From Nannocystis pusilla (GTDB lineage Bacteria > Myxococcota_A > Polyangia > Nannocystales > Nannocystaceae), in NCBI RefSeq assembly GCF_049060185.1, contig NZ_JBMEQO010000002.1: a stretch of 64,000 nt of DNA, one strand, 5' to 3'. Below, one piece after another: positions 4,227 to 62,292 of this stretch. The notes under the pieces were generated by a model, which did not search any database, was not told where the DNA came from, and was given only the letters and a program-made list of their open reading frames with translations. A program made the position numbers and the translations under genes. The number at the start of each line of letters is the position of its first letter. Position 1 is the stretch's first letter.

Positions 4227-4334
4227 GCGCGTAAAAACGGCCATGTCGTGAAGGACATGGCCGAAGAGTCATGTGGCCTGTCGATCGGCGCGCGTGGCCG
4301 GGGGAGCGGCGACGCGCGGCGGCCGGCCGGGGCC

Positions 4335-4694
4335 TCAGCGGCTCTCGAGCTTGAAGCCGGTGAGGCAGCGCTCGCCGCCGTTGCCGGCCTTGTAGGTCGG
4401 CGTGACCTCGACCTGCTTCTTGGCGCGCAGGGCCTCGAACAGCAAATTGATCGAGTTGGCGCTGAGCTCGCGGCCGGGGCACAGCGAGCCGCCCCACTTG
4501 TAGTCGCGCTTTTGCCCGGTCTTCTCCTTGATGGAGACCGAGCCGTTGAACATGGCGTGGTTGTCGCTGCTGCTCTCGTAGAGGGTGACTGCTTCGACGT
4601 TGCCGACCGTGCCGTTGGAGTCGGCGAAGGCGGCGGCGGGGAGCATCAACGCGGTCAGCGCGGCGAGCAGGGACAGACGAGGACGTTGCGACAT
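4335..4694 (-). CDS. small secreted protein (hypothetical)
   Basis: Internal Met of the 225-aa minus-strand ORF gives MSQRPRLSLLAALTALMLPAAAFADS (signal peptide) plus an approximately 95-aa mature domain with two Cys. The tandem palindromic array 4866-5075 lies immediately upstream. Confidence 0.55.
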   Translation of the reverse strand: MSQRPRLSLLAALTALMLPAAAFADSNGTVGNVEAVTLYESSSDNHAMFNGSVSIKEKTGQKRDYKWGGSLCPGRELSANSINLLFEALRAKKQVEVTPTYKAGNGGERCLTGFKLESR

Positions 4695-4865
4695 GTGTGA
4701 TTCTCCTGGGGGTCGGCCCGTGGTGGGCACTCGGACTGCGGGCGCCAGGGTCCTATTTGCGTCCCCGACCTGCAACTCCCAGTGAGCTCTCGATCTGGGC
4801 GAGATCGCGGGCCGAGGGCGCGTCAGCGCCCTGCGGGCAAGCGGCGACAGGGCTGGCCTGGAGAC

Positions 4866-5075
4866 AGAGATGTCTCTCGGGACATGTCGCGCCCGCGCGC
4901 CGGGACACGTGACCGCCGAAGCGGAGCGTGTCTCGGGACAGGTCGGTCGCGTGCAGGGCTCGGGAGACCGGCGGGGACCGAGGGTGTCTCTCGGGACATG
5001 TCGCCCGCGCACGCGGACAGCCGACCGGCCCGTCGACTAAAATGTCTCTCGGGACATGTCGAATGCGACAGTGTC
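4866..5075. repeat. 4 tandem units (56-58 bp period) each carrying the 20-bp element RTGTCTC(TC)GGGACAKGTCG
   Basis: Copies at 4870-4889, 4928-4946, 4984-5003 and 5042-5061. Each is ATGTC-N6-GACAT inverted repeat fused to the palindrome GACATGTC. Flanked by GAGACAgagaTGTCTC and GCGACAgtGTCGC inverted repeats. Confidence 0.85.
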
Positions 5076-5087
5076 GCGAGGGGCAGC

Positions 5088-6007
5088 TCAGCCGCGCGCG
5101 CGCAGGGCCGCGCGGATCTTGGCGAGGGTGTCGTCGAGGCGCGAGGCGGGCACGCTGACGCGCGTCGGCATGCCGCCGCCGAGGCCGAGCAGGGCGACGA
5201 AGTCGAGGCCGCTGGCGAAGCTGGCGGCGATGTTCAGGGTCTGGCCGTCGATGACGACCGCCACGGGGCGCGCTCCTGGCCGAGCAGCAGCAGCTCGGTC
5301 TTGTCGAACGAGCGCGGATTGCCGGGCACGCGCACGAGGGCGACGCCGTCCTCGACGACGTAGGCGCGGGCCAGCGCGGCGGCCTCGGCGGCCATGGCGT
5401 CGAAGTCGGCGGCGGCGGCGGCGATCGCGTCCTGCTCGGCGCCGCGCGGGCGGCCGGCGACCAGCCAGCGGACGATCTTGTTGAGGAGGACGGTGTCCTC
5501 GTAGTGGGCCCGCAGCGCCTTGTCGACGAGGGCGCCGACGGGGCCGACCTCGCCGATCCGGGTGTCGACGGCGCGGGCGTCGGCGTCGGCGCCAGGGTAG
5601 GGCTCGACGCCGCGGAGCAGCCACTTGGCGGCCGAGTAGAGGCCGTCGAGGTCGAAGTGGGCGACGATGGTGTCGACCGGACCTGTCTCTTCGACCATCT
5701 GCGGCGTGATGATCTCGGGGCAGGCGCCGTGCTCGGCCTTGGTGTGGAGCACGAAGCGCGAGTCGCCGCGGAACTGGGCGTGGCGCTCGTGATCGTGGTG
5801 GTCGACCCACCGGGCCAGGCGCGCGCCCAGGCCGGTGAGGAACTTGCCCGTGATCTTCTCGAAGCCGCTGCCGATGCCCTCGGCCGCGAAGGCGACGTCG
5901 AGCACGACCACGCGGCCGCGCAGGTTCGCGGGCTTGGGCAGCCGCCGCGGACTGGCGAACACCAGGTCGATCGCGGCGGCGTCGGCGAGCCTGGACGTGG
6001 CGCTCAC
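5088..6007 (-). CDS. hypothetical protein (possible metal-dependent hydrolase), 1 frameshift
   Basis: N-terminal part in ORF 5234-6007 (MSATSRLADAAAIDLVF...WVDHHDHERH...). C-terminal part in ORF 5088-6125 frame (...VVIDGQTLNIAASFASGLDFVALLGLGGGMPTRVSVPASRLDDTLAKIRAALRARG). Start overlaps the stop of the upstream TPR gene. Confidence 0.4.
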
Positions 6008-6315
6008 CCTTCCAGCGCGGCGCGGGCGGATTCGAGCTCGCCGAGCGCGTGTGCGTCGCCGGCCGCGCGCGCGGCCTGGACGCCCTGATCGAGGACCTGC
6101 AGGGCGCCGTCGCGGTCGCCGGCATCGACCAGGGTGTTGCCGGCCATCAAGTAGGCGGGGACGTACTCGGGGATCTTGGCGATGAGCTCGCGGAACTCGA
6201 CGATCGCCTCGGCGAGCTGCCCGCGGCGCTTCAGCTCCATGGCCAGGCCGTAGCGCGGGAACGCTTCACCTGGCTTTTGGGCCACGAACTGTCGGAGCAT
6301 CGCCAGGCGATCCAC
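6004..6315 (-). CDS. small TPR-repeat protein
   Basis: 103 aa with TPR-like helices (AYLMAGNTLVDAGDRDGALQVLDQGV). Translationally coupled to flanking genes on the minus strand. Confidence 0.5.
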   Translation of the reverse strand: MDRLAMLRQFVAQKPGEAFPRYGLAMELKRRGQLAEAIVEFRELIAKIPEYVPAYLMAGNTLVDAGDRDGALQVLDQGVQAARAAGDAHALGELESARAALEG

Positions 6316-6324
6316 GGCGGGACC

Positions 6325-6885: not shown

Positions 6886-7003
6886 AGCGCTTCCTTCGGG
6901 TGGGCGGCACCCTAACCGCCCTGCCGCTTCCGCGCAACCCGGCCGCGCCGGGAACGCCGTCCGGCAGCAGGCCGGCTTTGCCGGGCCGCCCGGGGCGCTA
7001 TGG

Positions 7004-9858
<2,855 letters not shown>

Positions 9859-9884
9859 GCGGGTCGGTGCGCTGCTGGTGCGGA

Positions 9885-10062
9885 TGAAGGGGCATGTCCC
9901 CAAGGGCATGTCTTGATGGGCATGGCTTTTGGGCATGTCTCGAAGCGCATGTGCCAGGCGCTGCTTGATGCGCTGTCTCGGAGGACAGGCGTCGTCGGGC
10001 ATCGTCCATATTAGACATGACCTGGAGGGCATGTCCTTTCGGGCATGTCATGCGAGGCGTGA
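9885..10062. repeat. two 14-bp-phased arrays of GGGCATGTC-type palindromes
   Basis: CATG cores at 9893, 9907, 9921, 9934, 9948 and at 10016, 10030, 10044, 10058. A TGTCTCGGAGGACAGGCGTCG element lies between the two arrays. Upstream of the glycine-rich lipoprotein gene. Confidence 0.85.
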
Positions 10063-10125
10063 CGCGCAGCACGGGCGGTGTTTGCATCGCGGACGGCGCC
10101 GCGCATCCCTGGGGAAGGGGTGGCG

Positions 10126-10974: not shown

Positions 10975-11058
10975 CCCTCGGGCCGCCGGGCGCGACGCGA
11001 GGTCACTGTAGCGAGCGGGGCTGCGTTGCAAAGTCCGCGCTTCGGCCTCGAGGCCGGT

Positions 11059-11290
11059 GTCGGCAGCGGCGATGCTTCGTGGCGGTGTGATTCGTGGCGG
11101 GCGAGCGGCGACCGGCTGCGGGGGCGATGCGTGGCGGTCGGCAGCGGCGATGCTTCGTGGCAGGCGAGCGGCGACGGGCTGCGCTGGCGATGCGTGGCGG
11201 AGGGCGAGCGGCGACGGGCTGCGGCTGCTCCGCGGCGGCGATGAGACGTGGGCGGAGGGCGAGCGGCGAGGAGTCGCGGGTGTGCTTCGG
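11059..11290. repeat. intergenic tandem direct repeat (about 76-bp unit, 2 full plus 2 partial copies)
   Basis: gtcggcagcggcgatgcttcgtggc...gggcgagcggcgacSggctgcg...ggcgatgcgtggcgg is repeated starting at 11059 and 11135. Partial copies at about 11203 and 11251. All three frames are open, which is a GC-repeat artefact. Confidence 0.8.
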
Positions 11291-11533
11291 CGTCGCTCTC
11301 GATGCCGGCGGTAGGGTCGCCGCGGAGGACTGTGGCGATCGCTTTGCGCGGGGATGCGTCGCGGACGGCGATCCGGCGAGGGGTGGTGCGGTGCTTCGAC
11401 GCCGGTAGAGCTATGGTCTTTTGGACATGTCTTGAGGGTCATGTGAATGATCGCGGGTGACTGGCGACACAGGGGTGTTTGCGTGGAGGCCTCGTGAGCA
11501 TCATGCCTACAGGTCGCAGGGGAGGCCGCGCAG

Positions 11534-12570
11534 ATGGTTCTCGAGGGTCGGTGGCGTACGGTGTCGGTGATGCTCGCAATCGTGTCCGGCGGCTGCGACG
11601 AGATCACGGACACTCGCCACTTGCGACCGGTGCCCAGCACGGTCGCCGGTGCCGGGGCGGAGGCCGACGATGCGCTGGCGCTCGAGTGCGAGGCGGAGGC
11701 GCTCGACCTGTGCGAGGCCGAGTGCGTCGATCTCGCGAGAGACGCGCGTCACTGCGGCGGCTGCGGGCGCGTGTGCGCCGGCACGTGCGCGGCGGGCTAC
11801 TGCGAGGCGCAGTGCGGGCCCGGCCAGATCCGCTGCGACGGGCGCTGCGTCGACCGCACGCGCACGACGCCCGACGGGAACGCGCGCCAGTTCGAGTTCA
11901 CCGGCGCGCCGGAGACGTTCGTGGTGCCCGAGTGCGTGTCGCGGCTCACCGTCGAGCTGTGGGGCGCGCAGGGTGGCGGTTCGCGCTGCTGCGACGGGAT
12001 CGATCAGGCGGACGGAGGGCTCGGCGCCTACGTGCGGGCGGAGCTCGAGGTGGAGCCCGGCGAGGCGCTGCAGATCCGCGTCGGCGGGCGCGGCGGGCTC
12101 GAGGGCGCGGCGGGCTACAACGGCGGCGGGCTCGGCGGCGCGTTCGCGGGCGGCGGCGGTGGAGCCAGCGACGTGCGCCAGGGCGGCGGTACGCTCGACG
12201 ACCGGATCTTCGTGGCGGCCGGCGGCGGGGCGGGCAGTGTGGCTGCCCGGACCACGGCGCAGGCGGCCCGGGCGGGCTAGCGATCGGCGGCCCCGGGGTG
12301 GCGCTGCTGCCCGAGTGGCAGGCGGCCGGCGGGGGCACGCAGAGCCACGGCGGGGCCGAGGGCTCGACGCCCGGCGAGGCGGGCGGGTTCGGCGAGGGCG
12401 GGGGCGGCGGGGTCTATCACGTGGCAGGGGGCGGGGGCGGCTGGTTCGGCGGCGGCTCGGCCCACGCGGCGGGCGGGGGCGGCGGGTCGTCGCTCCTCGG
12501 CGCCGACCCGGCCGGCAGCGGACTGCCCGCGGTGCGCGCGGGCGACGGGCTGGTGCGGATCCGCTGGTGA
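11534..12570 (+). CDS. secreted Cys-rich plus glycine-rich protein, paralogue of 10126-10974, 1 frameshift
   Basis: N-terminal Cys-rich module (CEAECVDLARDARHCGGCGRVCAGTCAAGYCEAQCGPGQIRCDGRCV), then FTGAPETFVVPECVSRLTVELWGAQGGGS... and Gly repeats. Frame change at about 12270 (ORF 11534-12280 into ORF 11479-12570). Confidence 0.55.
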
Positions 12571-12582
12571 GCGCGCGAGGTC

Positions 12583-12622: not shown

Positions 12623-12679
12623 CCCGCCGGCCCGGCCTTCCCCCTCTGCCGCGGCCGGCGGGTTTTCTTTGCCGAGGTC

Positions 12680-14885: not shown

Positions 14886-14970
14886 TCGGGACAGGTCTGG
14901 AAGGGCATGTCGTGGGGACATGCTCTTCGAGGCATGGCGCCGGGGACATGGTGCGAGGGACATGGTGGCG
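14886..14970. repeat. 6-unit 14-bp-phased array of GGGACATGKY palindromes
   Basis: Cores at 14892 (CAGG), 14906, 14919, 14933, 14947 and 14961. Starts 2 nt after the stop codon of the lipase gene. Confidence 0.85.
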
Positions 14971-16364: not shown

Positions 16365-16644
16365 GCGGCGGGAGTCGGTAGCGAAGGCTGCCTCGAGAGA
16401 CAGCTCTTGGACGGACGTCTCTTGGGTCATGTTGCGCCGCGCGCCACGAGATCGAGAGACCGACGGTGAGTCCCCGGGGAGCCGGCGGGGCCAGGATGGC
16501 CCGAGGGACAGGTCACGCGCACGCGGCGGGCGGAGCGAGCAGACGCGGCGGCATGGTTCGCGGCACGAAGATGCGGGGTCGAGCGGAGAGGCCCGAACTG
16601 CGGCTCACGCCGCGAGCGACGCTCCGGCGCCGATTAAGCCCTGT

Positions 16645-16740
16645 TCGACATGGTCGAAGGGATAGGTCGTAGAGGGCATGTCGAAGTCGACATGTCTCTC
16701 ACGACATGATCATGAGAACATGTCGTTCGGGACAGAGTCA
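16645..16740. repeat. 7-unit perfectly 14-bp-phased array (GACATGTC / GGGCATGTC units)
   Basis: Cores at 16649, 16663, 16677, 16691, 16705, 16719 and 16733. The last 2-3 units encode the C-terminal codons (...PNDMFS*) of the minus-strand FAD monooxygenase. A degenerate copy set lies at 16395-16445. Confidence 0.9.
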
Positions 16741-18067
16741 GCGCGCCAGCAGGGCCGGCGCAGCACGCTCGGGTGGAACAGGTCGCGGCTCGGGCGCATC
16801 AGGTGCAGGACCTCGATCAGGCGCAGGTAGAGCTCGGGCGAGCGGGTGGCGGCGGCGAAGATCCGGTCGACGAAGCGGTGCATGAGCTTGAGGCCCGGCG
16901 AGACCTTGCCGGTGGTCCCCGGCCAGCGCAGGTCGTCGCTGCTGGCGGTCATGAAGGCGGCCAGGTTGCCGGCGGCGAGGCGCTTCTGGAAGCGCAGGCC
17001 GAGCGGCTCGTGCGGCGCGCGCGCAGGGCCGCGTCGAGGACCGTGGCGGCGACGGCGGCGACGCTCATGCCCTGGCCGTAGACGGGGTTGAGGGCGCAGG
17101 CGGCGTCGCCGAGGACGACGAAGCCGTCGGGCCAGCGGCGCAGGCGCTCGTAGTGGCGCAGGCGGTTCTCGGTCTTGCGGTAGCCGTGGATGGCGGAGCA
17201 GGGCGTGGCGCCGACCAGGACGTCGCGCAGGGCGGGGTCTCGAGGGCGCCGGCGAACTCGAGGAAGCCGGCCTCGTCGACCGGCGGGAACACGCCGCCGT
17301 AACCGACGAGGGTGACGATGTGACGCCCGCCCTCGACCGGGTAGACGACGCCGCCGCGCGGGTTCTTGCCCGGCTTGCCCATGGCGTAGAGGACCTTCCA
17401 GTCGGGCCGGGCGCGCAGCTCGTAGAGGCGGGTGGCGTAGCCGAGCTGGGCGTCGATGATGGTCTCGGGCGGCTCGGGGTAGCCGAGCGCGGCCAGCCAG
17501 GTCGGGGCCCTGGAGGCGCGCCCGCAGGCGTCGACGACGAGGTCGGCGCGCAGCTCGTCGGCCGCGAGCTCGGGCGCGCCGGCGCGGCGGTGGACCTGGA
17601 CGCCGACGATCCGCTCGCCGGCGGCCTGCAGGCCGGTGACCTCGAGGCCGGAGTGGATGCGCACGCGCTCGTCGGCGACCAGCGCGCTGCGCACCTGGTA
17701 CTCGAGCAGGCCGCGGGTGCAGGCGCGCGAGCGCAGCGGCGAGGGACCCGCGGGGCCTGACCGAAGGGGGTGTGCCAGGCGACGTCGTCGAGCCAGTCGA
17801 TCTCGTGGGCGCCCGCGGCCGCGAGCGCGTCGCCGAGGCCGGGGAACTGCTCGCTCATGATCTGCCAGCCGCGCGTCAACAAGACGTGGACGTGGTGGCT
17901 CTGCGGCGCGCCGGCCCGCGGCTCGGGCCCGGCAGGCAAGCTGTCACGATCGAGGAGGTGACGCGCTCGAAGTGACGCGTGAGCACGCGGGCGGCGAGGA
18001 GGCCGGCGATCCCGGCGCCGATCACGATCGCGCGGCGAGGCGCCGACGCGGAGCCTGAGGTGGGCAT
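16710..18067 (-). CDS. FAD-dependent monooxygenase (UbiH/TetX-like), 3 frameshifts
   Basis: N-terminus [29 protein letters not shown] (GxGxxG dinucleotide-binding motif) in ORF 17876-18067. Middle in ORF 17065-17694. C-terminus ...[37 protein letters not shown] in the 16710-18638 frame. Confidence 0.6.
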
Positions 18068-18153
18068 GGCGGAGTGATACGACAGCGCGGCGACGGCCGG
18101 AAGCGGGCCCGCACGCAGGCGGGGCGCGCGATCGCTCGCGCTCCGCTCCGGGC

Positions 18154-18590
18154 TGGTCGAAGAGACAGGTCGGGCGAGGCCCGGCGACGGTGTTTTGAAC
18201 GGGCGCCGGTGGCCGCCGGAGCGGCGCGCTCGGCCGCGGCCCGAGGCCGAGCTGCTCGAAGGACATGTCCGGGGCGGTCTGCAGCGGCGGGGTGCGCGGC
18301 GCGGAGGTCGGGTGGGGCGATCGCGTGCGGGTGATGGTGGCTGTCCGAAGAGACATGTCGCGCCGGCTGCAGGGCGGGGCGGGCGACGCGACGGCCGGGC
18401 GGCGAGGTGGCGAAGCAGGAGCGCGCCGGCGAACGGGCTGAGGCTCGCTAGAGGCGGCCGAGCTGCGGGATGACGATGTTCGGCCGGTACGCCGCAGATG
18501 TCCGAAGGTCATGTCACTCATGGGTGCCGGACAGCGCGCCGAGGTCGGTGCATTCATGATTTTTAAAAGAATGTCCGAAGGGACAGGTCG
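18154..18590. repeat. 5 dispersed copies of the 20-bp element TGTCCGAAGRGACAKGTCG in a divergent promoter region
   Basis: Copies at about 18154, 18254, 18341, 18497 and 18569. The spacer is CGAAG in every copy at this locus, so this is a local subfamily. An AT-rich island CATTCATGATTTTTAAAAGAATG lies at 18550-18572. Confidence 0.8.
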
Positions 18591-18909
18591 TCGCGGGCGC
18601 AGCGGTGATCGGCGGCACTCGAACGAAGGTGATCGCAATCGCAGGTGTAGGATTCACGGGCCCACGAGCTTCCGCACGAGCGCTCGGCTTGACCGCTCCA
18701 CAGGCCGCGTGTATCCCCAAATCGATGCTCCGGCGCGCCACCACCGCGACTACTACCACCACCCTTCCGGGTGGGGTCGGTCGCGTGCGCGTGCGCTGAG
18801 AGCTTTCGAGACACACGCCCTGCGAAGCCCCGCCCGAGCCGGCGGGGCTTTTGCGCGCATGGTGGCGTCGCTCCGTCCGGCCGGTCCTTTCACCCCGGAG
18901 ACCGCCGCC

Positions 18910-20129
18910 ATGAGCCACGACATCAGCCCCCATTCCGTCCTCGACGCCCACGACCACCGCGCCCTCGGCCCTCGCCTCGGCCTGTTCCACCTGCAGGAAG
19001 AGGCGCCGGCGATGGTGTTCTGGCACCCCGCGGCCTGGTCCTCGCCCGCGCGCTGGAAGACGCGGCCCGCCGCCGCGCCAGCGCCGACGGCTATCACGAG
19101 GTCCGCACGCCGCAATTGCTGCGACAGCCGATCTGGGAGAAGAGCGGCCACTGGCAGCATTTCCGCCAGGGAATGTTCGCAGTCGCCGACGAGGGCTGCG
19201 GCGCGGCGCTGAAGCCGGTGAGCTGCCCTGGCCACATCCAGATCGCCCAGCGCAGCGCGCTGTCGTACCGCGACCTGCCGCTGCGCCTGTGCGAGTTCGG
19301 CCTGTGCCACCGCGACGAGCCGAGCGGGACGCTGCACGGGCTGTTCCGCCTGCGCCAGTTCACGCAGGACGACGGCCACGTGTTCTGCGCGGAGGACCAG
19401 ATCGCGGCCGAGATCGTGCGCTTCTGCCAGGGCGCGCGCAGGTTCTACGCGGGCTTCGGTTTCGAGGACTTCGCGGTCGGGCTGTCGACGCGTCCGCCGG
19501 AGCGGGTCGGCGACGATGCGCTGTGGGACCGCGCGGAGGCGCAGCTGGCGGCGGCGGCCCGCGAGGCGGGGCTGGATTACGTGGTGCAGCCGGGCGAGGG
19601 GGCGTTCTACGGGCCGAAGCTCGAGTTCTCGCTGCGCGACCGCCTCGGCCGCTCGTGGCAGTGCGGGACGATCCAGCTCGACTTCAACCTGCCGGAGCGC
19701 TTCGGGCTGCATTACATCGACGAGGCCGGTCAGCGCCGCCGCCCTGCGATGCTGCACCGGGCGATCTACGGCAGCCTCGAGCGCTTCCTGGCGATCGTGC
19801 TCGAGCACCACGCAGGCGCGCTGCCGGCCTGGCTGGCGCCCGTGCAGGTGGTGGTGGCGCCGGTGGCCCAGGCTCAGCAAGCGGCGGCGGAGGCGGCAGT
19901 GGCCGAGCTGCGCGCGGCGGGGATCCGGGTCGAGCTCGACGACCGCCGCGAGACGCTGGCCCGCCGGGTGGCGGAGGCGCACGCGCAAGGGGTGCCGATG
20001 CTCGCGGTGATCGGGGCGCGCGAGGCGAGCAGCGAGGCGCTGACGCTGCGGATCCGCGAGGAGCAGCAGGTGCTGCCGCGCGCGCAGGCGGTGGCGCAGA
20101 TCGCGAGGCATTGCGCGCCGCCGGTGTGA
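18910..20129 (+). CDS. threonyl-tRNA synthetase catalytic-core paralogue (class II aaRS) lacking the N-terminal TGS/editing domains, 1 frameshift
   Basis: [43 protein letters not shown] matches the ThrRS RDHRKLG...FxxEEAPGMxFWHPKGW region. Frame change at about 19045. Downstream come the class-II motifs and anticodon-binding domain (...[11 protein letters not shown]...). Confidence 0.7.
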
Positions 20130-24784: not shown

Positions 24785-24860
24785 ATGCATGATGGGACAT
24801 GTCGTCAAGGACATTGTCATAATGACATGTCTTTCATGACATGTTCTTGAGGACATATCT
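24785..24860. repeat. 5-unit 14-bp-phased array (GACATGTC, GACATTGTC, TGACATGTC, TGACATGTT, GGACATATC)
   Basis: Cores at 24798, 24812, 24826, 24840 and 24854, plus off-phase CATG at 24788 and 24835. Lies between the convergent 3' ends of the M16 and OmpA genes. Confidence 0.85.
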
Positions 24861-24960
24861 TGGATCGAAGGCGCCGCTCGTCGCAACGAGCCCCGCGCGT
24901 GACGAGCCGGGGCCCGACTCGGGCGCCCGGCTCGTGGACGATGCAGCGCTCGCGCGCGGC

Positions 24961-26373: not shown

Positions 26374-26499
26374 GGGGGCCGCCGGCGGCGCCGCGGACGG
26401 CGAGGCGGGCCGCTCGTCACAATGACTCGAAGGACATGTCGCAACGGCTATGTGGGCAGCGCCTGGGCCTGCTGGTCGGCGCTGTGATCCGCGCCGCGC

Positions 26500-29059: not shown

Positions 29060-29112
29060 TCATCAATGAACGATGGAACATGGCGCTTGGGACATGTCCA
29101 TAGCGCCATGTT
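29060..29112. repeat. 4-unit 14-bp-phased CATG array
   Basis: Cores at 29065 (ATG), 29079, 29093 and 29107. Lies between the dehydrogenase 3' end and the histidine-kinase 5' end. Confidence 0.75.
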
Positions 29113-29127
29113 GGCGCGCGCCGGCGG

Positions 29128-34984: not shown

Positions 34985-35035
34985 CATGGGATGACTTCGG
35001 GGACATGTCCCTGAGGTCATGACGTCATGCCGCGG
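34985..35035. repeat. 3-unit 14-bp-phased CATG array between convergent rSAM and repeat-protein genes
   Basis: Cores at 34990 (ATG), 35004 (GGGACATGTCCC) and 35018, with off-phase CATG at 34985 and 35026. Confidence 0.7.
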
Positions 35036-38364: not shown

Positions 38365-38590
38365 AGCAATTCGACAGGACATGTCCTGGAGGCCATGTCT
38401 TTGGCAGGTCAGCAGAGGCGAGGCTGTTTCAAGATGTCTTGAAGGACATGTCCTTGAAGACTTTGGGTGAATGCGGAATAAGCGAGGGCTGCGGAGGTCT
38501 TTACGAGCATGACCCCGAGGTCATGTCCTAGATTCGTTGCGGCGATTGGCAATGCTGGGTTGTGAGCGAGCCTGGCTTCGAGGACATGTC
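38365..38590. repeat. multiple short 14-bp-phased CATG palindromic pairs/triplets
   Basis: Cores at 38370/38384, 38423/38437 (AAGATGTCTTGAAGGACATGTCC), 38500/38514 and 38581. Lies between HTTM and the ATPase gene. Confidence 0.75.
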
Positions 38591-38672
38591 GGGAGACGGC
38601 GGGGCGGGCGAACCGGGGAATCGCACGCTGGAGTGGGGGCGCGGGCGGGGTCTCGCGCGGTAAGACTCGGGC

Positions 38673-46105: not shown

Positions 46106-46349
46106 GAGGAGGAGGCGGAGCGTCACGACAACGGCGGCGGCCGGCGGCGCATTCCGTCGCGCCTCGGGATAGCACGCACGTCGGCGACGCCCAGCCGCAC
46201 GGCCTTGGCGCCGGACGCAGCGGCGTCGACCGGATCGGCAGCGGCGAGGGCGCGGATGGCGGCGAGCGAGCTCGGCCGTGCGGCGGGGTCCGGTCGACCG
46301 GTGCGACGGCGCGGGTGCGAGGAGGACATGGCGGAGCGGCCATAGCGAT

Positions 46350-46590
46350 CGGGACATGTCACGTCAGGCATGTCCGATACGACATGTCTTCGAGGCGGGG
46401 CAGCCGAACAGTGCGCAGCGACTCCCGCCATGGCGACGCGGCGCGCGGCAGCGTCCAGCGACCCGGGAGCGGGGGCGAGGATGTTCTCGCCGCGCGAGCA
46501 CGGTCGGGTCGCGGCGCCGATCCGGGAAATCATCGGACATGTCTCATGGAGCATGTTTTTATGGACATGCTCTCGCAGCCATGTGAGCGC
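46350..46590. repeat. two 14-bp-phased CATG arrays (3 and 4 units)
   Basis: Cores at 46355, 46369 and 46383 (GGGACATGTCACGTCAGGCATGTCCGATACGACATGTCTTCG) and at 46538, 46552, 46566 and 46580, with an off-phase site at 46545. Confidence 0.85.
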
Positions 46591-51151: not shown

Positions 51152-51337
51152 GGCGCCTCGATCTTACCTCCGATCGCGCCGCCCGCGGGGCCGCTCCGCC
51201 TGTTATCTTCACTGCGATCCGACGATGTCGACGCCGCCCCACACGCCGCCCGACACGCCTCCCGATGCGAGGGCCGCCCGCGGCGCAGGTGCGGGCACGT
51301 GGGGGACGTCGACGTCCATCGTCTCCACGCGCGCGTC

Positions 51338-54300
51338 ATGGGCCGGCTGTTCGGCGAGCCGGCCGCGCCCACCATGATCGGCCGCTTCCACGTCGAGCGC
51401 CGGCTCGGGGAGGGGCCATGGGCGTCGTGTATGCGGCCGTCGACGCCCAGCTCAATCGCCGCGTCGCCATCAAGCTGCTGCACCCGCACCTCCAGGGCGA
51501 CGACCAGGGTCGCGCCCGCCTGCTGCGCGAGGCCCGGGCGATGGCACGCCTCGAGCACGAGCACGTGGCGCGGATCTACGAGGTCGGCGCGTGGGGCGAC
51601 CAGATCTATATCGCCATGGAGCTCATCGAGGGCGTGACCCTCGAGGCGTGGCTGCGCGAGCGCCCGCGGCCGTGGCAGGAGGTGCTCGCGGTGTACCTGC
51701 AGGCCGGGCGGGCGCTGGCCGCGGCCCACCACGCCGGCCTGCTGCACCGCGACTTCAAGCCCGAGAACGTGCTCGTCGACAGCCGCGACCGCGCGCGCGT
51801 CCTCGACTTCGGGCTCACCTGCGCCCTCGATTTCGGCGAGGCCCTCGACGACGAGCTGATGCCGCTGACGCGCACCGGCAGCATCCTCGGCACGCCGGCC
51901 TACATGGCGCCCGAGCAGCAGCGCACCGGCAACGCCGAGCCACGCTCCGACCAATTCAGCTTTTGCGTGGCGCTGTTCGAAGGTTTGTTCGGTCTGCGGC
52001 CGTTCGGCTCGCTTCCGCGCTTCGGGCAGGTCGAGATCGCGCCCATTCCGCGCGAAAGTCGCGTGCCGTTGCGCGTCCGCCGCGCGATCATCCGCGGCCT
52101 GTCCGAAAAGCCAGCCGAGCGCTGGCCGACGATGGAGGAGCTGCTCGCGGCCCTGCAGCCGCGGCGGCGCTTCTCCGAGAGCCCCGAGCCGGTGCCCGCG
52201 CGGACGTGGCTGATCGCCGGCGGCGCGGCGGCCACCGCGGCGGGGCTGGTCGCGCTCGGGGTGTCGCTGGCGCAGCCCGACGCCGGCGCAGGCGCGGCCG
52301 CGGCCCTGCAAACTCCGGCGCCCGACAGCGCCCCCGCGGACGCGCAGGCCGGCGAGCTGGCAGTCGAGCGCGCGGCCGCGGAGCGCCAGGCCCACGCGCT
52401 GCGGGTCCGCGACGCCGCGTTCTCGCTGCTGCCGCGCGACCCCACCGCCGCCGCTGCTGCTGCGCGAGCTCGACGAGCCGGGCGCGCTGGCCCAGCGCGT
52501 GCTGGCCGAGCCGATCAGCCAGGCGATCCTGCGCGGCCACGACGGCGCGGTGACTGCGGTGCGCTGGATCGAGGCTGTCCCGGGGGACAGGAGCGCGCCG
52601 CCGGCCGGCGCGGTGCCGGGCGCGGTGGGGCTGTCCGCGAGGACAGGTCGAGCGCGAAGGCGGGAGATGTCCGCGAGGACAGGTCGAACGCGCACCGGCG
52701 CGAGGTCGTGCTGGCGAGCGGGGCCGTGGCTGCGGTGACTGTCCCCAGGGACAGATCGAACGCGCACCAGCGCGAGGTCGTGCCGGCGAGCGGGGCCGGA
52801 TCCGCGGCGGCACCTGTCCCCGCGGACAGGTCATCTGCGCACCAGCGCGAAGTCTTGCTGGCGAGCGGGGCCGTCGCTGCGGTGCCTGTCCCCAGGGACA
52901 GGTCGAACGCGCACCCGCGCGAGGTCGTGCTGGCGAGCGGGGCTGGATCTGCGGCGCTCGCTGCTGCGCCTGTCCCCGCGGACAGGTCGATCGCGCACCC
53001 GCGCGAGGTCGTGCTGGCGAGCGGGGCGGTGCCGGTCGCCGGTGCGCCTGTCCCCGGGGACACGTCGGCTGTCCCGCAGGACAGCCCGCGGCCCGCCGCG
53101 GCCGCCGAAGATCTGCGCGGCGCGGTCGAGACGGTCGACGCCGCCGGTAACGTCCGCCGCTTCGCCCTCGCCGGCGGGCCGCCGACGCCGGGGGCAGGCG
53201 GCGCCGCGCCCGATCCGCGGCGCGGCCCCGGCGGCGAGCAGCTCCGCACCGACGCGCGCGGCGGCGTCTCTCTGGTCGCGGTCGATCGGGTCACGCCGTT
53301 GCGGGGCGTCGCCGGTCCGCTCGCGGGGGTCGCCTGGAGCCCCGACGGCGCGCGCGTGGCCGCGGCCGGTCCGCGCGGCGAGGTGTGGGTGGTCGCGGAG
53401 GGGCGCGCGGCCCTGGTCGTCGCTCGCGGTGCGGCCGTCGGCGCGCTGGCGTGGGACCGCAACGGGCGCCAGCTGGCGATCGGCCGCGACGACGGCGGCG
53501 TCGAGGTGTGGCGGGTCGACGGCGCCCCGCGGCGGGTCGCCGCGGTGGTCGGCGACGGCGGCGTCACCGGCCTGGCCCTCGGGACAGGTTGGTTCGCCAG
53601 CGGCAGCGACGACGGCAGCGCGCGGGTGTGGCGGATCGGCGGGACCGCGCGCCCTACGTGCTGCGCGGGCACACCGGGCCGGTGCGGGCGCTGGCGTTCG
53701 CGCCGGTCGGCGTCCGCTTGATCACCGGCAGCGACGACGGCAGCGCGCGGGTGTGGCGGCTGGCGCCGGCCGCCCTGCGCGAGCACGACCTCGGCGCGAC
53801 CGTGCACGCGCTCGCGTGGAGCCCCGACGGCACCGCTCTGGCCGCCGCCGGCGCGCGCAGCGTGTGGCTGCTGCCGACCGACGACGGCCCGGTGCGCCGG
53901 CGCGACCACGCAGGCACCGCGCAGGCGCTGGCCTGGCGGCGCGACGGGCAGGAGCTCGCGGTCGCCGACGACAGCGGCGCGGTCACCTGGATCCCCGCGG
54001 CGAGGGGCGACCCGGCGCGTCAGCGTCGATCGCCGCCCGGTGTCCGCCCTGGCCTGGGACGCTCGCGCCGATCGCCTGGCCGCCGGCGGCAGCGAGGGCG
54101 CGTTCTTCTTCTGGCCTTCGGGACATGACTTCAAGGACATGCTCGATCCGTCCCGCGCGCCGCAGGGCCGCGGGGCCATCACCGCCATGGCGTGGTCGCC
54201 GGTCGACGAGCGGCTGGCGGCGGTCACCGCCTCCGGCTTCGTGCTGGTGCGCGTCGAGCAGACGGTGTTCATCGAGCTCGGCCACCCGCTGCGCGCGCTG

Positions 54301-56178: not shown

Positions 56179-56270
56179 CCCCTGGCCCGAGGCCGAGATC
56201 GTCGCCCCGGCCCGGGCCCGCGATCCCCCACCTGTCCTACGGGCCACATGTTCCAGGAGCACCTTCGACC

Positions 56271-58111
56271 ATGACTCAACGATTCTACTCATCGATCCCG
56301 CTGATCTCCGCCGCAGCGCTCGCGCTGATGGTGGGCGGCGCTTGCAAGACAGTCGTCCTGCCGGGCAACGACAGCGGCGACGAGACCGAGGGCACCGGGG
56401 CACGACCGCCGGCGGCGGCACCGACGGTGGCAGCAGCACCGGCAGTGACGGCGAGCAGGGCGAGGCCAACTGCGGCGAGCTGTCGGCGCAGACCCTCAAC
56501 ATCCTCGACAAGAACTGCAAGCAGTGTCACGGGGCCGACAGCGCGGCCCTCGGCAGCATCAACTACATCACCAACCTCGACGCGCTGATCTCGAACGGCA
56601 AGGTCGTGCCCGGCGAGCCGAACAACTCGGCGATCTACCGCCGCATGGCCGCGACGATGCTGCCGATGCCGCCCGAGGGCCAGGAGCCGCGGCCGACCGA
56701 GGACGACATCCGCGCGGTCGAGCAGTGGATCGGCGAGTGCGCCGGCGTGACCGGGTGCGGCGAGAACCCGTGGATGACCCGCACGCAGGTGATCGACCTG
56801 ATCCGCAACGACCTCCTCAACACGCAGGAGATCTCGGCGGACGCGCGGCCCTTCATCCGCTACTTCAGCCTGGTCCACCTCTACAACTACGGCTGGTGCG
56901 ACGACCAGATCGAGATCTACCGCCACGCCCTGTCGAAGCTGGCCAACAGCCTGTCGAACGAGATCAAGGTCGTGCCGCCGGTGGCGATCGATCCGGACAG
57001 GCTGATCTTCCGCATCGACATCCGCGACTACGACTGGGACGCGCCGGGCCGCGTGCTCGACATCGAGACCAACACCTTCGTCGAGGAGTTCCGCGACACC
57101 TGGGAGCTCATCGCCGACAAGGACCCGTACGCGATCGAGTTCATCGGCGACAGCGCCGAGGACGTGAAGCAGGCGACCAACACCAAGTTCTTCCTGCTGC
57201 AGGCCGACGCGTTCGTCGAGGTGTCGGCCCAGCCGCCGCTCTACCACGACATCCTGCGGATCCCGCGGACCCGCCAGGAGCTCGAGGCCAGCTTCGGCAT
57301 CAACGTCGAGGGCAACGTCCAGGAGGAGATCGAGACCAACCCGAACCGGGTCGCGCGCGCCGCGTTCCACGAGTCGGGCGTGTCCGAGAACCACCGCGTG
57401 ATCGAGCGCCACGACTTCCCGAACGCCAGCAACCGCGTCTACTGGATCAGCTACGACTTCCAGAGCAACGCCGGCGACGCCAACGTGTTCGTCGACCCGT
57501 TCGGCTTCGTGGAGGACGGCAGCGAGATCATCTACAGCCTGCCGAACGGCCTCCAGGGCTACATGATTGTCGACGGCGTCGGCGTCCGCATCGACGACGC
57601 GCCGATCCAGATCGTGCAGGACAAGAACGCCCCGGACGGCGTGGTCCGCAACGGCAAGTCGTGCATGGGCTGCCACAACGTCGGCATGATCAACAAGGAA
57701 GACGACCTGCGCTGGGAGATCGACAACAACCTCGGCGAGGGCGACTTCGACGACAACGAGCTCGACGCCGTCCGCGCCCTCTACCCGAAGCGCGACGACT
57801 ACAACGTCCTGCTCGCGCTCGACTCCGACCGCTTCAACCTCGCGGTCAAGTCGGCGGGCGTGCCGCTCGGCGGCGACAAGGAGCCGATCGTCACGGTGTT
57901 CAACGCCTTCGACGAGGACGTCGAGATCCGCCGCGCCGCCGCCGAGCTGTGGACCACCGAGACGACCCTGCGCGAGAAGCTCGGGCAGCTGAGCCCCGAC
58001 CTCGACGATCTCGGCAAGAGCCAGACCGGCGTCCGCCGCGACGTGTTCACCGCCGCCTACTCCGACGCCGTCTGCCAGCTCAAGGTCGGTATCACCAAGG
58101 CCTGCAAGTAA
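56271..58111 (+). CDS. lipoprotein with two CxxCH haem-binding motifs (planctomycete-type cytochrome c domain protein), 1 frameshift
   Basis: RBS AGGAG. Lipobox LMVGGAC. Frame change at about 56400. CKQCH at the N-domain and CMGCH near residue about 465. Confidence 0.55.
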
Positions 58112-58320
58112 TCCTCACCCACCAGACCGCCCGGGCAGATCTGGCGACCTGCCCGGGCGGTCGTCTGTCGGCTCGCGGACCTGTCTGAAAAGACATCTCG
58201 TGCGCCGGCCGCCGGGGACGGGCATAGGTCCGCGCGTGGCCCGGCGCACGCGGAGTGGGCGCTCGCGCCCGTGCGCGATAGCGTCCTCGCCGCAGGGGCA
58301 CAGGTCGTGTACCGTCCTCC

Positions 58321-61207
58321 ATGGTGGGTGCCCACTCGCCCGACGACAAGCGCTCCGGGCCCTCGGACCCGGACCTGCTCGCGACTACCGACACCAAGTC
58401 GCCGGCGCTGGACGTCACCGCCCGGGCTCGCCCGAGTCCGATCGAGGAGACGGCCCTCGCGGCACCTGGTCGAAGGGACAGCACGCCGGTCCACGCGGCC
58501 TCGAGCGTCGGCCTGCGCGGCGCCGTGGTGCCGCTCGAAGACTCGCTGATCCGCCAGTCGCGTCGGATCGGCCGCTACGCGATCCTGAGCGAGCTCGGCG
58601 AGGGCGGCATGGGCGTCGTGCTGTCGGGCTACGACGAGGTGCTCGAGCGCCGCGTCGCCATCAAGGTCGTGCGCTCGCACCACCGCCAGGACGAGCGCCT
58701 GCAGGCCCGCCTGCTGCGCGAGGCGCAGGCGCTGGCCCGCCTGTCGCACCCCAACGTCGTCCAGGTCTACGAGGCCGGCACGCTCGGCGACGAGCTGTTC
58801 ATCGCCATGGAGTTCGTCCGCGGCGTCACCCTGTCGGCCTGGCTGGAGGACCGCGAGCGCTCGCAGCAGGACATCCTCACCGTCTTCTCGGAGGCCGGGC
58901 GCGGCCTGGCCGCGGCGCACCGCGTCGGCCTCACGCACCGCGACTTCAAGCCCGGCAACGTCCTCGTCGACCTCGAGGGCCGCGTCCGCGTGGTCGACTT
59001 CGGCCTGGCCGCGCTCGCCGAGCAGGCCGAGCGGCCCGCCGGCGACGAGCTCGTCGACGTCGGCGTCGAGCGCACCGTCTTCTTCGCCGGCACCCCGGCG
59101 TACATGGCCCCGGAGCAATGGCTCGGCGGACAGGTCGACGCCCGCACCGATCAGTTCAGCTTCTGCGTCGCGCTGTGGGAGGCGCTGTGGGGCTCGCGTC
59201 CGTTCTCCGGCAACACCGTCGACGAGCTGCGCGACCAGGTCCTGGTCGCCGACCTGCCCGAGCGCGTGCAGGTCGGCCCGCGCGTGGGCAAGCGGCTCTA
59301 CCGGGTGCTCTTCGCGGCCTCGCGCGCGTCCCCGACGCCCGCTACCCGAGCATGGACGCGCTGCTCGCCGACCTCGCCGGCCCGCAGGTGCGCGCGGCAT
59401 GCCGTGGTCGGCCTCGGCCTCGGCGCGGTGATCGGCCTGGCCGCGGCCGCGTGGAGCTTCCAGGACGAGGGCCGCTGCCTCGGCGGCGAGGCGCGTCTGG
59501 TCGGCGTGTGGGACCCGGCCCGCCGCGACGCCGCCGCCGACGCCTTCGAGGCCAGCGGGCTCGGCTTCGCCGACGAGGCGTGGACGCACGTGGCCGGCCG
59601 CCTCGACGCCCGCGCCGAGGCGATCGTGGCGATGCACCGCGACGCCTGCGAGGCCCACGCCCGCGGCGAGCAGTCGGAGCACCTGCTCGACCTGCGCATG
59701 GCCTGTCTCTCACGACATGTCCATGAGGTCAGGGCCGTCACCGACCTGCTGGTGGCCGCCGACGCCGGCGTGGTCGAGCGGGCGGTCGACGCAGTGGCCG
59801 CGCTGCCGCCGATCGAGCGCTGCGCCGACGTCGGGGTGCTCCGCGCCGAGGTGCCGCCGCCCGCCGATCCGGCCACCGCGCTGGCCGTCGACAACGTCCG
59901 CCGCGGGCTCGCCAACGTCGCCGCGCTCGAGCACACCGGCCGCTACGAGGCCGGCCTGCTCGGCGCCGACCAGGCCGTCGCCGCCGCCGAGGCCGCCGCC
60001 TACGCCCCCGCAGTCGCCGAGGCCCAGCTCGCGCGCGGCCGCTTGCTCGCGCTCGTCCAGCGCGACGCCGAGGCCGAGACCAGCCTGCGCGCCGCCTTCA
60101 CCACCGCCACCGGCAGCCGCCAGGACGCGGTCGCGCGCGACGCCGCGGCCGCCCTGGTCGACACCCTCAACACCCTTGGCCGCCTCGACCACGCCGAGGT
60201 CTGGCTCGAGATCGCCGGCGCCGCCCAGACCCGCGCCCCCGACGACGGCGCCGCCGCCTTGCTCGCCCTCGCCCGCAGCAAGCTGCTGTGGTCGCTCGGG
60301 CGCTACGCCGAGTCCGAGGCGCTCATCGAGCGCAGCGTCGCCGCCTACGACGCCCTCCACGGCGCCGACAACCCGGCCACCGCGCGCGCCGCCAGTGGTT
60401 CGGCACCGCCCTGTGGGCCCGCCAGGAGTTCGACCGCGCCAAGGCTGTCCTTCCGGACAGCCGCGCCCGCCTCGAGCGCGCCTTCGGCCCCGAGCACCCC
60501 GAGGTCGCCGCGGCCCTGCGCTACGAGGGCAACCTCTACTTCGTCCTCACCGACTTCGACGCCGCGCTGGCGACCTGGCGCCGCGGCCTCGACATCATCC
60601 TCCGCACCCGCGGCGAGGACGACCCGCTGGTGGTCGTGTTCCAGGGCAACATCGCCGCCGCGCTGGCCCGCGCCCGCCGCTCGATCGACGCCGTCGCCGC
60701 CTTCGAGGCGGTCGTGCGCTCGCTCGAGCGCCGCCACGGCCCCGATCACATCGAGCTGTGCACGCAGCTCGACAACCTCGCCGCGTCGTACCTCGAGGCC
60801 GGCCAGCTCGACCCGGCGCGCGCGGTCATCGACCGCTCGCTGGCGATCCGCCGCCGCGTCCTCGGCGAAGACCACGCCGAGGTCGCGCGCTCGCTGCTGG
60901 GCCTGGGCGAGTGGGGCCTCCACGCCAGGGATTACGCCACCGCCATCCCCGCCTTCGAGCGCGCCCTGGCGATCCGCGCCGGCACCGACGTCCACACGCT
61001 TTGCGCGGCCGCGCCGAGTACGGCCTGGCCCGCGCGCTGTGGCTGTCCGAGCGCGACCGCGTCCGCGCCCGCGCGCTCATCGAGCAAGCCGTCGCCACCT
61101 TCACCGCCCTGGGACCCGCCGGCTCGCTCGACCTCGCCGAGGCCACCGCGTGGCGCGACGAGAACGTGACGCCCGCCGGCGCCGCGCCGGTCCAGCCGAA
61201 GCGGTGA
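58321..61207 (+). CDS. Ser/Thr protein kinase with C-terminal TPR-repeat domain, 3 or more frameshifts
   Basis: IGRYAILSELGEGGMGVVL...HRDFKPGNVLV...DFGLA...GTPAYMAPEQ. Frame changes at about 59340, 60400 and 61000. TPR segments (EVAAALRYEGNLYFVLTDFDAALATWRRGLDI..., ELCTQLDNLAASYLEAGQLDPARAVIDRSLAI...). Confidence 0.65.
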
Positions 61208-61227
61208 GGGCACCAGGCTGCTCGTTC

Positions 61228-61292
61228 GAGCATGTCCGAATCGACATGCTTTAAAATGCATGTCGTGAAGGGCATGTCCAAATGCGCAGCCG
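61228..61292. repeat. 4-5 unit 14-bp-phased CATG array
   Basis: Cores at 61231, 61245, 61259, 61273 and a degenerate site at 61287 (GAGCATGTCCGAATCGACATGCTTTAAAATGCATGTCGTGAAGGGCATGTCC). Lies between the kinase stop and the SDR start. Confidence 0.85.
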
Positions 61293-61462
61293 ATTCGGCG
61301 AGCGCAGCTTCGTCACGGCTCGGCGGCCAGCCAGGTGCAGCCGCGACCGGGCGCCGCGGGCCGCGAACCCTCCCGAGCGGCCACGTCCACGAACGGCCGC
61401 CCGCCGTCGGCCACGCGAACATCCTCTCGCCATCGCGGGCCGGGCCGCGCTACCTTCCGCGG

Positions 61463-62204
61463 ATGCGCCACGTCATCGTCTTCGGGGCCACCTCCGCCAT
61501 CGCCGCCGAGGTGTGCGCGCTGGGCCGCGCGCGGCGATCGGCTCCACCTGGTCGGCCGCGATCCCGACAAGCTCGCGGCCGTGGCCGCCCGCTGCGCCGG
61601 TGCCGAGGTCACCACCGGGGCGGGCGACTTCACCGAGCTCGCGCGCGCCGAGGCGCTGGCGAACGAGGCCGTGGCCGCGCTCGGCGGCCGGGTCGACCTC
61701 GTCCTGGTCGCCCACGGCGATCTCGGCGATCAGCAGCGCAGCGAGCACGACGTCGCCGAGGCCGCACGGATCGTCCAGGTCAACCTCCTCTCGGTGATCG
61801 CGGTGCTGGTCCCGCTCGCCAATATGCTCGAGCGCCAGCGCAGCGGCACCCTCGCCGTCATCACTTCGGTCGCCGGCGAGCGCGGCCGTCCGCGCAACTA
61901 CACCTACGGCGCCGCCAAGGGCGCGCTGCACGTCTACCTGCAGGGCCTGCGCAGTCGGCTCTACCCCGCGGGCGTCAGCGTCACCACGCTCAAGCTCGGC
62001 CCGGTCGACACGCCCATGACCGTCGGCCACGCCAAGAACGCCCTGTTCGCCACCCCGCAGCGCGCCGCTCGCGACATCGACCGCGCCATCGCCCGCCGGG
62101 CCGTCGTCGCCTTCGTCCCGTGGTACTGGCGCCCGATCCTGTTCGTCGTCCGCCACACGCCCGAGCCGCTGTTCCAGCGCCTCGGCTTCCTGTCGGGCCG
62201 CTAG
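61463..62204 (+). CDS. short-chain dehydrogenase/reductase (SDR), 1 frameshift
   Basis: MRHVIVFGATSAIAAEVCAL (TGxxxGxG-like motif), then a frame change at about 61535, then ...ITSVAGERGRPRNYTYGAAKGAL (YxxxK catalytic motif). Confidence 0.65.
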
Positions 62205-62239
62205 GGCTCGGGGCGAGCCGGGATGGCAGCCGGGCGTTC

Positions 62240-62292
62240 GGGGCATGCCCTACAGACATGCTCTCGCGGACATGTCCCATCGAGCATGTACT
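62240..62292. repeat. 4-unit CATG palindrome array (13/14-bp spacing) between convergent SDR and WD40 genes
   Basis: GGGGCATGCCCTACAGACATGCTCTCGCGGACATGTCCCATCGAGCATGTAC with cores at 62244, 62257, 62271 and 62285. Confidence 0.8.

Follow-up and report, generated by a model that had tools for sequence, protein, structure and literature searches.

Phased CATG-centred palindrome arrays past terminal stop codons in the genus Nannocystis

To our knowledge, the ends of transcription units in very GC-rich bacteria with few canonical hairpin-plus-U-tract terminators are poorly understood, and myxobacteria have barely been studied. Bidirectional intrinsic terminators between convergent genes are known from full-length RNA profiling in Escherichia coli, and tandem-hairpin and U-tract-less 'I-shaped' terminators have been proposed for actinobacteria. 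Among extragenic repeats, many repetitive extragenic palindromic (REP) sequences of E. coli lie 1-20 nt from the end of the upstream open reading frame (ORF; PMC12306157), and proposed roles of REPs and bacterial interspersed mosaic elements (BIMEs) include termination, mRNA stability and protein binding (PMC2817692). REPs and their associated transposases (RAYTs) were described in gamma- and beta-proteobacteria only (Nunvar et al., 2010). Here, arrays of a CATG-centred palindrome are described in a 64,000-nt stretch of Nannocystis pusilla (contig NZ_JBMEQO010000002.1 of assembly GCF_049060185.1; hereafter the window) and in related genomes. Our literature search returned no account of such repeats, of REP-like repeats or of RAYTs in Nannocystis or other myxobacteria; the RepRanger survey makes no mention of Myxococcota, and a search on the motif string returned mainly p53 papers.

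The arrays lie 5-30 nt beyond the stop codon that closes a transcription unit, most often between convergent genes. From their sequence and position, they may be genus-specific REP/BIME-like hairpin arrays which mark the 3' ends of transcripts from both strands and probably bring about their termination or stabilisation, a reading to which we assign a probability of roughly 0.5.

Unit, phasing and gene context

The window has 73.1% G+C and contains 232 copies of CATG. Distances between these copies peak in isolation at 14 bp (34 pairs), 28 bp (18 pairs) and 42 bp (8 pairs), with 0-3 pairs at neighbouring distances. In 200 dinucleotide-preserving shuffles, the same three distances gave means of 0.5-0.65 and maxima of 3-4, which rules out chance or base composition as the source of the arrays and upholds the non-random 14-bp periodicity claimed in a preliminary description of the window. 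Longer patterns are equally in excess: GRCATGTC-N6-GRCATGTC and four phased RCATG each occur 5 times in the window against 0.00 expected, and GRACATGTCY occurs 17 times against 0.29 expected.

Alignment of the phased sites yields a 14-nt unit, comprising the 10-nt palindrome GG(A/G)CATG(T/C)CC and a 4-nt spacer more A/T-rich than the genome (array consensus wr-GG-R-CATG-Y-CC-yw). Centred on the spacer, the module reads TGTCC-N4-GGACA, which as TGTCY-N4-GRACA (5-N4-5) has 37 matches against 0.2 expected, and CATG joins adjacent modules. Successive 14-mers in Nannocystis arrays have a mean identity of 0.61, with the palindromic core alone in common; these are not the near-identical copies over the whole period of an ordinary tandem (mini-satellite) repeat.

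Counted over all arrays of the window and the other loci introduced below, the hexamer ACATGC occurs 85 times, GCATGT 73, ACATGT 69 and GCATGC 27. The bases either side of CATG are thus negatively associated, with ACATGC/GCATGT above and the palindromic ACATGT/GCATGC below expectation (hand chi-square ~19), and ACATGC and GCATGT are the top two hexamers in 5 of the 6 named Nannocystis species. These two forms alternate weakly along arrays (chi-square p=0.024), the orientation of a palindromic unit being barely definable.

Genes were called with a self-trained codon model, because raw ORFs are meaningless at this G+C content. An array was defined as at least three exact CATG in phase, and the census covered 400 kb, made up of the window and 42 further Nannocystis loci (336 kb chosen for containing an array). 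It comprised 79 arrays with 333 units; unselected sequence carries ~12-14 arrays per 64 kb. Forty of the 79 arrays lie between convergent genes, 24 between same-strand genes, 9 at locus edges, 5 inside a called gene (self-trained calls) and 1 between divergent genes. The distance from array edge to nearest stop codon has a median of 14 bp (at most 30 bp in 58/79), against a median of 1048 bp to the nearest start codon (at most 30 bp in 2/68). In same-strand contexts the array hugs the upstream stop, and ~300 bp remain before the next start. In the unselected window, a phased chain follows ~20-25% of gene 3' ends, compared with 1 of 48 5' ends. The placement was replicated in four loci that had been fetched via a protein rather than the motif and that carry independent database gene calls: 18 of their 22 chains lie no more than 80 bp after a stop, with none at a 5' end and none in a gene, yet 83-86% of this DNA is coding.

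The preliminary description had placed arrays in divergent regions and inside ORFs too, in effect treating them as indifferent to gene ends. Instead they cluster past terminal stop codons; a divergent context is found in 1 of ~65 cases, and the independent calls leave no phased chain within a gene. Placement rules out a promoter or operator motif. Centromere-type iterons and operator arrays would occupy few loci by partition or regulated genes, usually upstream, while these arrays are dispersed over many unrelated 3' ends and are nearly never divergent or 5'. No support was found for the helically polymerising dimeric helix-turn-helix protein (nucleoid-associated, centromere-like or a spreading repressor) that had been suggested, and which does not predict placement at stop codons.

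The preliminary description had listed 22 loci as 14-bp arrays, and these were re-examined one by one. About 10 are solid phased arrays and 3 have two units (11415, 34990 and 54128); those at 4870-5061 and 18154-18590 are scattered single hairpins, and 7 are single units (12583, 15835, 16395, 26421, 36711, 58181 and 59703). The elements of the window are given below, with the strand of neighbouring genes in brackets and predicted minimum free energy (MFE) in kcal/mol.

3594..3662: array of ~5 phased units (2 degenerate), 6 bp past the stop of gene 2504-3589(+); MFE -38.7 on the + strand; absent from the preliminary list.
4237..4278: 3-unit array where genes 3939-4226(+) and 4335-4646(-) converge; units 1-2 make a predicted 10-bp hairpin, then TTTTT on the - strand.
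4864..5063: four isolated 1.5-unit hairpins (ATGTCTCTCGGGACATGTCG), spaced by ~57 bp, downstream of a gene that ends at 5088(-); half-sites of the family without a 14-bp array.
9888..9956: 5-unit array with one 13-bp step, 31 bp past the stop of VWA gene 8362-9858(+).
10011..10066: 3-4-unit array sharing the intergenic region of the preceding array, 126 bp ahead of the next gene start.
11421..11448: two units in phase, a weak case; the self-trained gene calls put no stop codon close by.
12583: single unit, on the preliminary list.
14887..14969: 6-unit array, 3 bp past stop 14884 of a DLH/PAF-AH hydrolase gene; the orthologous site has arrays in the N. pusilla-like and N. exedens genomes.
15835, 36711 and 59703: single units in coding sequence, not distinguishable from chance.
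16395: single unit, on the preliminary list.
16644..16741: 7 phased positions, 5 with exact CATG, at convergent genes ending at 16364(+) and 16710(-); predicted as one long nested hairpin, MFE -48.9; all four other species have arrays at the orthologous site. Earlier reported as seven units without deviation (16649-16733), it has two degenerate cores (ATAG, CAGA) and an extra out-of-phase CATG at 16712.
18150..18600: isolated hairpins (GACMTGTCYCTTCGGMCAGC type) scattered over the 1 kb that separates the divergent tRNA-synt_2b and FAD_binding_3 genes; single hairpins, not phased further, of a class conserved in other species.
24793..24862: 5-unit array where the genes for M16_C peptidase (stop 24783, +) and OmpA/DUF937 (stop 24961, -) converge; 4-7 units at the orthologous site in every species.
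26421..26460: degenerate element of ~3 units (ACATAGCC..GACATGTCC..GTCATTGTGAC) past the stop of a PAS-histidine-kinase gene (26500, -); position, and largely sequence, kept in five genomes.
29074..29115: 3-unit nested element, 14 bp past the stop of a Glu/Leu/Phe/Val dehydrogenase gene (29128, -); MFE -33.9/-30.2.
34990..35026: two phased units between a convergent radical-SAM gene and a 190-aa gene; units at the orthologous sites too.
38375-38400, 38428-38455, 38503-38530 and 38580-38593: four small groups of 1-2 units, the first 60 bp past stop 38315(+); counted among the solid arrays.
46322..46391: 5-unit array in a 478-bp spacer between two - strand genes.
46533..46588: 4-unit array, 18 bp past the stop (46605) of gene 46605-47276(-).
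54119..54146: two units in phase, in a gap between genes.
58175..58202: lone degenerate hairpin (GGACCTGTCTGAAAAGACATCTC), 64 bp past the stop of cytochrome-c-domain gene 56342-58111(+).
61226..61281: 4-unit array overlapping stop 61254 of Ser/Thr kinase gene 58321-61254(+); predicted nested hairpin with a stem running into the flanks, MFE -43.7/-36.0.
62238..62293: 4-unit array filling the 103-bp gap between convergent SDR (stop 62204, +) and WD40 (stop 62308, -) genes.

At gathering thresholds, Rfam gave no match in the window, which also holds no tRNA genes. The Ser/Thr-kinase-WD40 ORF 51265-53721(+) contains a tandem repeat at 52560-53090, with 5.2 copies and periods of 72, 75, 78 and 84 bp (all multiples of 3). 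Each copy holds a CTGTCC-N4-GGACAGGTCGA hairpin with half-sites of the array family, and the codon-position GC signal is weak there; the hairpin element may have expanded in frame within this gene. Another tandem repeat, of 63 bp (also 40 bp; ~2 copies, 86-88% match), lies at 11091-11223 in a gap of 586 bp upstream of gene 11561-12280 and shows no relation to the CATG units. Furthermore, the coding phase, followed by GC content at third codon positions (GC3), switches frame without a stop at ~14640, ~15630, ~32500-32690, ~36850 and ~37750; the orthologues are intact single genes in four other Nannocystis genomes (among them the 831-aa MVP-like and 444-aa FAD-binding genes), suggesting assembly indels or pseudogenes in the window.

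Distribution in Nannocystis and orthologous junctions

A pattern of four GRCATG at 14-bp phase was scanned against one genome per bacterial and archaeal species and matched at least 120 stretches. Forty-two among the 120 matches listed belong to Nannocystis (N. exedens, N. pusilla, N. bainbridge, N. radixulma, N. punicea, Nannocystis sp. RBIL2 and a Nannocystis metagenome-assembled genome, MAG). The inspected matches from outside the genus, among those listed, are near-perfect 7- or 14-bp tandem repeats of unrelated units with a successive-copy identity of 0.73-0.99; as ordinary tandem repeats, they give no sign of a spread beyond the genus. The unit consensus is identical in six Nannocystis species and the window, and phased arrays are genus-wide in Nannocystis. 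Arrays in at least seven independent Nannocystis assemblies (six named species and the MAG) dismiss an assembly artefact or a feature of the window only, in line with the preliminary description. A viral origin was also rejected: four viral contigs (54-66% GC) have one two-unit hairpin each and no arrays.

The 42 pattern-derived loci held no orthologues of one another, and orthologues were found by protein search. Four loci, from an N. pusilla-like genome (L121), N. punicea (L122), N. exedens (L123) and N. bainbridge (L125), are syntenic with ~14.9-36 kb of the window. The OmpA/DUF937 protein encoded in the window shares 94% identity with its orthologue in N. pusilla and 74-81% with the orthologues of four further species, which places the window in a Nannocystis near N. 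pusilla. Six orthologous 3' junctions keep arrays in essentially all of the five genomes, down to 74% protein identity: the convergent OmpA/M16_C, FAD_binding_3/352-aa gene and radical-SAM/190-aa gene junctions, and the 3' ends of the Glu/Leu/Phe/Val dehydrogenase, PAS-histidine-kinase and hydrolase genes. Three short same-strand, operon-like junctions (99-170 bp) have no unit in any of the five genomes, and their sequence is well conserved. Orthologous arrays differ in unit number, order and spacers, and those of more distant species are not alignable. Between the window and L121, identity is 76% in array columns, 88% in other intergenic columns and 97% in the OmpA coding sequence; thus, position and motif are kept and sequence is replaced. 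Gains and losses between species are seen as additional arrays in L123 at 15708 and in L125 at 9782.

Turnover of this kind, faster in arrays than in the flanking intergenic DNA, would suit a selfish or neutral repeat without host function, spread or homogenised by a REPIN/RAYT-like transposase, gene conversion or hairpin-driven slippage, and surviving only at harmless sites just past terminal stops and between convergent genes. The gains and losses, the high copy number and the confinement to one genus (among the matches listed) are consistent with it, as are related hairpin units within longer tandem repeats, one of them in-frame inside a gene. It does not readily explain why six junctions retain arrays across the five genomes despite replaced sequence, why arrays in tandem contexts hug the upstream stop rather than fill the free spacer, or why the sense strand folds better (see below). 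Also against it, no GT(A/G)G head adjoins the palindrome, GT[AG]G even being depleted (3.0 per kb across arrays plus flanks, compared with 7.4 overall), no tetranucleotide is conserved in array spacers or flanks, and conserved termini and target-site duplications are lacking; a RAYT-type REP was rejected on these grounds. No Y1 transposase was seen among 20 window proteins scanned, a result that is uninformative for a single-copy gene and that involved no rayt-aimed search. A miniature transposable element bounded by inverted repeats (MITE) was rejected as well, since the flanks are uninformative beyond a fading extra unit and 71 of the 79 arrays lack a flanking direct repeat of at least 4 nt. 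On balance, a purely selfish or neutral origin is considered unlikely.

Two species-specific changes were observed in the syntenic loci. In N. punicea (L122 15467-16710), the spacer past the methyltransferase gene has grown to 1.2 kb by ~110-bp tandem repeats, each with CAGATGTCCCGAAGGACAGCC; the same spacer measures 400-850 bp in the other species and lacks these repeats. In N. bainbridge alone, extra genes for an SMC_N/AAA_15/AAA_21 ATPase and a 182-aa ORF lie between the methyltransferase and tRNA-synthetase genes (L125 15782-17682), and look like a small defence-type (OLD/Gabija-like ATPase) insertion.

Folding and possible function

Self-complementarity lets a unit on either strand pair with its neighbour, giving an 8-13-bp stem and a 4-nt loop, or fold against its mirror unit to make a long nested hairpin. 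Predicted array MFE ranges from -19 to -66 kcal/mol, and many arrays are predicted as one nested hairpin with a stem reaching into the flanks. The 14-bp period is what a 10-nt self-complementary arm and a 4-nt loop or linker add up to, so that any adjacent pair can form a hairpin, and it needs no argument from helical turns such as the preliminary description had offered.

Complementarity between particular partner units is small but holds up statistically. Real arrays are predicted to fold better than arrays reassembled with units borrowed from elsewhere in the set (-30.8 vs -28.2 kcal/mol; Wilcoxon p=0.005). Per 10 non-core positions, 4.46 Watson-Crick matches are seen at unit distance 1 and 4.51 at distance 3, against 4.14 in random pairs. 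Mirror-pair complementarity exceeds that of unit-shuffled arrays (z=3.8), with odd distances above even ones, and simpler tests of neighbour complementarity are near neutral. A plain row of neighbour hairpins with strong covariation was therefore rejected, the averaged tests giving small effects and nested or mirror pairing fitting at least as well.

Strand asymmetry of fold energy follows local GC skew (Spearman -0.61, p=3e-9), to which the + strand bias of folding and unit orientation in the window is mainly due. A smaller effect of transcription direction is left when GC skew is a covariate (beta -3.0 kcal/mol, t=-3.3, p=0.0014), and it favours the sense transcript. That the transcript of the upstream gene folds better than its antisense points to RNA, as would be expected if G-U pairs are tolerated. 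Together with placement at transcription-unit ends, this bias is the main ground for preferring a role at the RNA level.

The arrays could instead act as duplex DNA, with a dimeric protein on each palindrome (GGRCATGYCC or TGTCC-N4-GGACA) and dimers packed every 14 bp at gene ends. Such a filament, which moves the idea of the preliminary description to 3' ends, might serve as a roadblock to transcription or an insulator, as a site for topoisomerase/gyrase or a nucleoid protein, or as the boundary of a domain. It would account for a unit sequence that is identical in every species examined though the arrays cannot be aligned between species, for units conserved largely independently of their neighbours and for phasing that persists even where neighbours are poorly complementary; many dimeric operators have the 5-N4-5 geometry of TGTCY-N4-GRACA, and proteins are known to bind BIMEs in E. 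coli (PMC2817692). However, duplex binding does not predict the effect of transcription direction on fold energy, the excess of asymmetric hexamers is unusual for a symmetric dimer site, and no candidate protein was identified. Moreover, some stems depart from the consensus and remain mutually complementary, at locus L001 6016-6113 and at window 29074-29115, where units 1 and 3 make an 11-bp stem of this type enclosing palindromic unit 2. A duplex-DNA binding array is judged improbable. Neither it nor a selfish or neutral origin is incompatible with hairpins acting at 3' ends.

If the arrays do act as 3'-end hairpins, the transcribed array would form one or more highly stable hairpins in the wake of RNA polymerase. 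Such hairpins would stop or pause transcription without a canonical U-tract, possibly with help of the NusA/NusG type, and would block 3'-to-5' exonucleases. The outcome would be mRNA 3' ends that are fixed and stabilised, and insulation of neighbouring, above all convergent, genes. Units of 14 bp could be gained and lost by slippage without loss of function, because every neighbouring pair can form a hairpin, which would explain both strict phasing and fast turnover at kept positions.

Several observations weigh against this proposal. Like canonical intrinsic (Rho-independent) terminators, the arrays place a GC-rich hairpin soon past the stop; the U-tract of such terminators is absent past one-sided arrays, where the T fraction in the next 12 nt is 0.15 compared with 0.14 genome-wide. 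Compensatory covariation is small, at ~0.3-0.4 extra Watson-Crick pairs per 10 positions, and local tandem duplication of near-palindromic units could yield part of the pairing signal. The excess of ACATGC/GCATGT fits none of the models considered, and a structural role alone leaves the conserved CATG and GG/CC flanks of every species unaccounted for. Finally, a separate GC-rich hairpin adjoins the OmpA stop beside an array, so that arrays are not the sole 3'-end structures and both kinds coexist.

This OmpA-stop hairpin (GCCGGG...CCCGGC; window ~24905-24935, L121 ~11355-11400) is conserved in four OmpA orthologues and not evident in N. bainbridge; TTTTCC follows it in L121 and TTTTGCG in L122. 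The array of the same spacer adjoins the M16_C stop on the opposite side. Pattern-scanned canonical terminators are not enriched in the window, and T-runs next to units are isolated cases (4263-4238(-), 18585-18572(-)). The first of these, a two-unit hairpin with TTTTT downstream of a - strand gene, is the best canonical terminator in the first 20 kb. A canonical-looking terminator at 12645-12672 (CTGCCGCGGCCGGCGGG + TTTTCTTT) lies 75 bp past stop 12570, beyond a degenerate 2-3-unit element. In addition, ~200 nt upstream of the class-II aminoacyl-tRNA synthetase gene (L121 17071-17270, ~ window 18770-18960) are strongly conserved in five species and, read on the synthetase strand, hold a GC hairpin with CTTTTG after it. 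This region had no Rfam match at gathering thresholds and looks like a leader or attenuator.

An identical motif in all species implies either a conserved recognition factor, reading the RNA hairpin or duplex DNA, or ongoing homogenisation or propagation. A dedicated factor that reads phased GGRCATGYCC, in duplex DNA or in a CATG-containing RNA stem, and enforces U-tract-independent termination or insulation on both strands is a speculative proposal that we think quite unlikely. Under it, a hairpin or protein filament could rebuild itself one unit at a time behind the polymerase, thanks to the 14-bp register. Sequence-specific terminator-binding proteins are known from mitochondria and eukaryotic ribosomal DNA; such a factor would be their bacterial counterpart and would represent a new termination or insulation system.

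The family probably numbers a few thousand elements (extrapolated) and is recognisable from sequence alone, which would provide a map of transcription-unit boundaries in Nannocystis, a natural-product producer. The arrays might also supply compact bidirectional terminator parts for engineering high-GC hosts. As their position is kept and their sequence replaced, they offer a natural test case of what maintains repeated extragenic palindromes: host function, a recognition factor or self-propagation.

Comparison with known systems

Bidirectional intrinsic terminators resemble the arrays in placing symmetric hairpins between convergent genes, where they could act on the transcripts of both strands. 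The canonical form is a single hairpin with an A-tract and a U-tract and has no sequence common to its loci, whereas the Nannocystis arrays have no U-tract, several phased units and one consensus. The non-canonical terminators of actinobacteria share stable GC-rich hairpins, sometimes in tandem, past stops where U-tracts are rare. However, they are defined by structure alone, and the arrays of Nannocystis have a conserved primary sequence and a fixed period.

DNA uptake sequences of Neisseria (DUS) and uptake signal sequences of Haemophilus (USS) provide a different parallel, being ~10-nt specific motifs that are over-represented genome-wide and often form terminator hairpins; a link between uptake sequences and terminators is reportedly discussed in one paper. 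The Nannocystis motif could by analogy have been enriched by biased uptake in transformation and tolerated as inverted pairs in terminators, given that it is short, specific, massively over-represented and concentrated at terminator-like positions. Uptake sequences, however, occur mostly as singles or pairs, are common inside genes and do not form phased runs of palindromic units, while the Nannocystis units come 3-7 to a phased run and are almost never found in coding DNA. An uptake signal is accordingly regarded as very improbable.

By analogy, the closest known systems are the RAYT-associated REP sequences and BIME clusters of Enterobacteria, Pseudomonas, Xanthomonas and Stenotrophomonas, and the resemblance noted in the preliminary description is borne out in copy number, location outside genes, ability to form hairpins, clustering and placement at 3' ends. 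Both are short palindromic hairpin units, present in very high copy outside genes and set in regularly spaced clusters in 3' regions by stop codons. The Nannocystis arrays are extragenic, exceed 100 copies per genome (extrapolated), consist of imperfect palindromes predicted to form stem-loops and repeat with the regular spacing of BIMEs, here 14 bp. They differ from REP and BIME sequences in that the unit is 10 nt long and itself a CATG-centred palindrome, the period is strictly 14 bp, the GT(A/G)G head is lacking, orientation is essentially undefined and the host is a myxobacterium.

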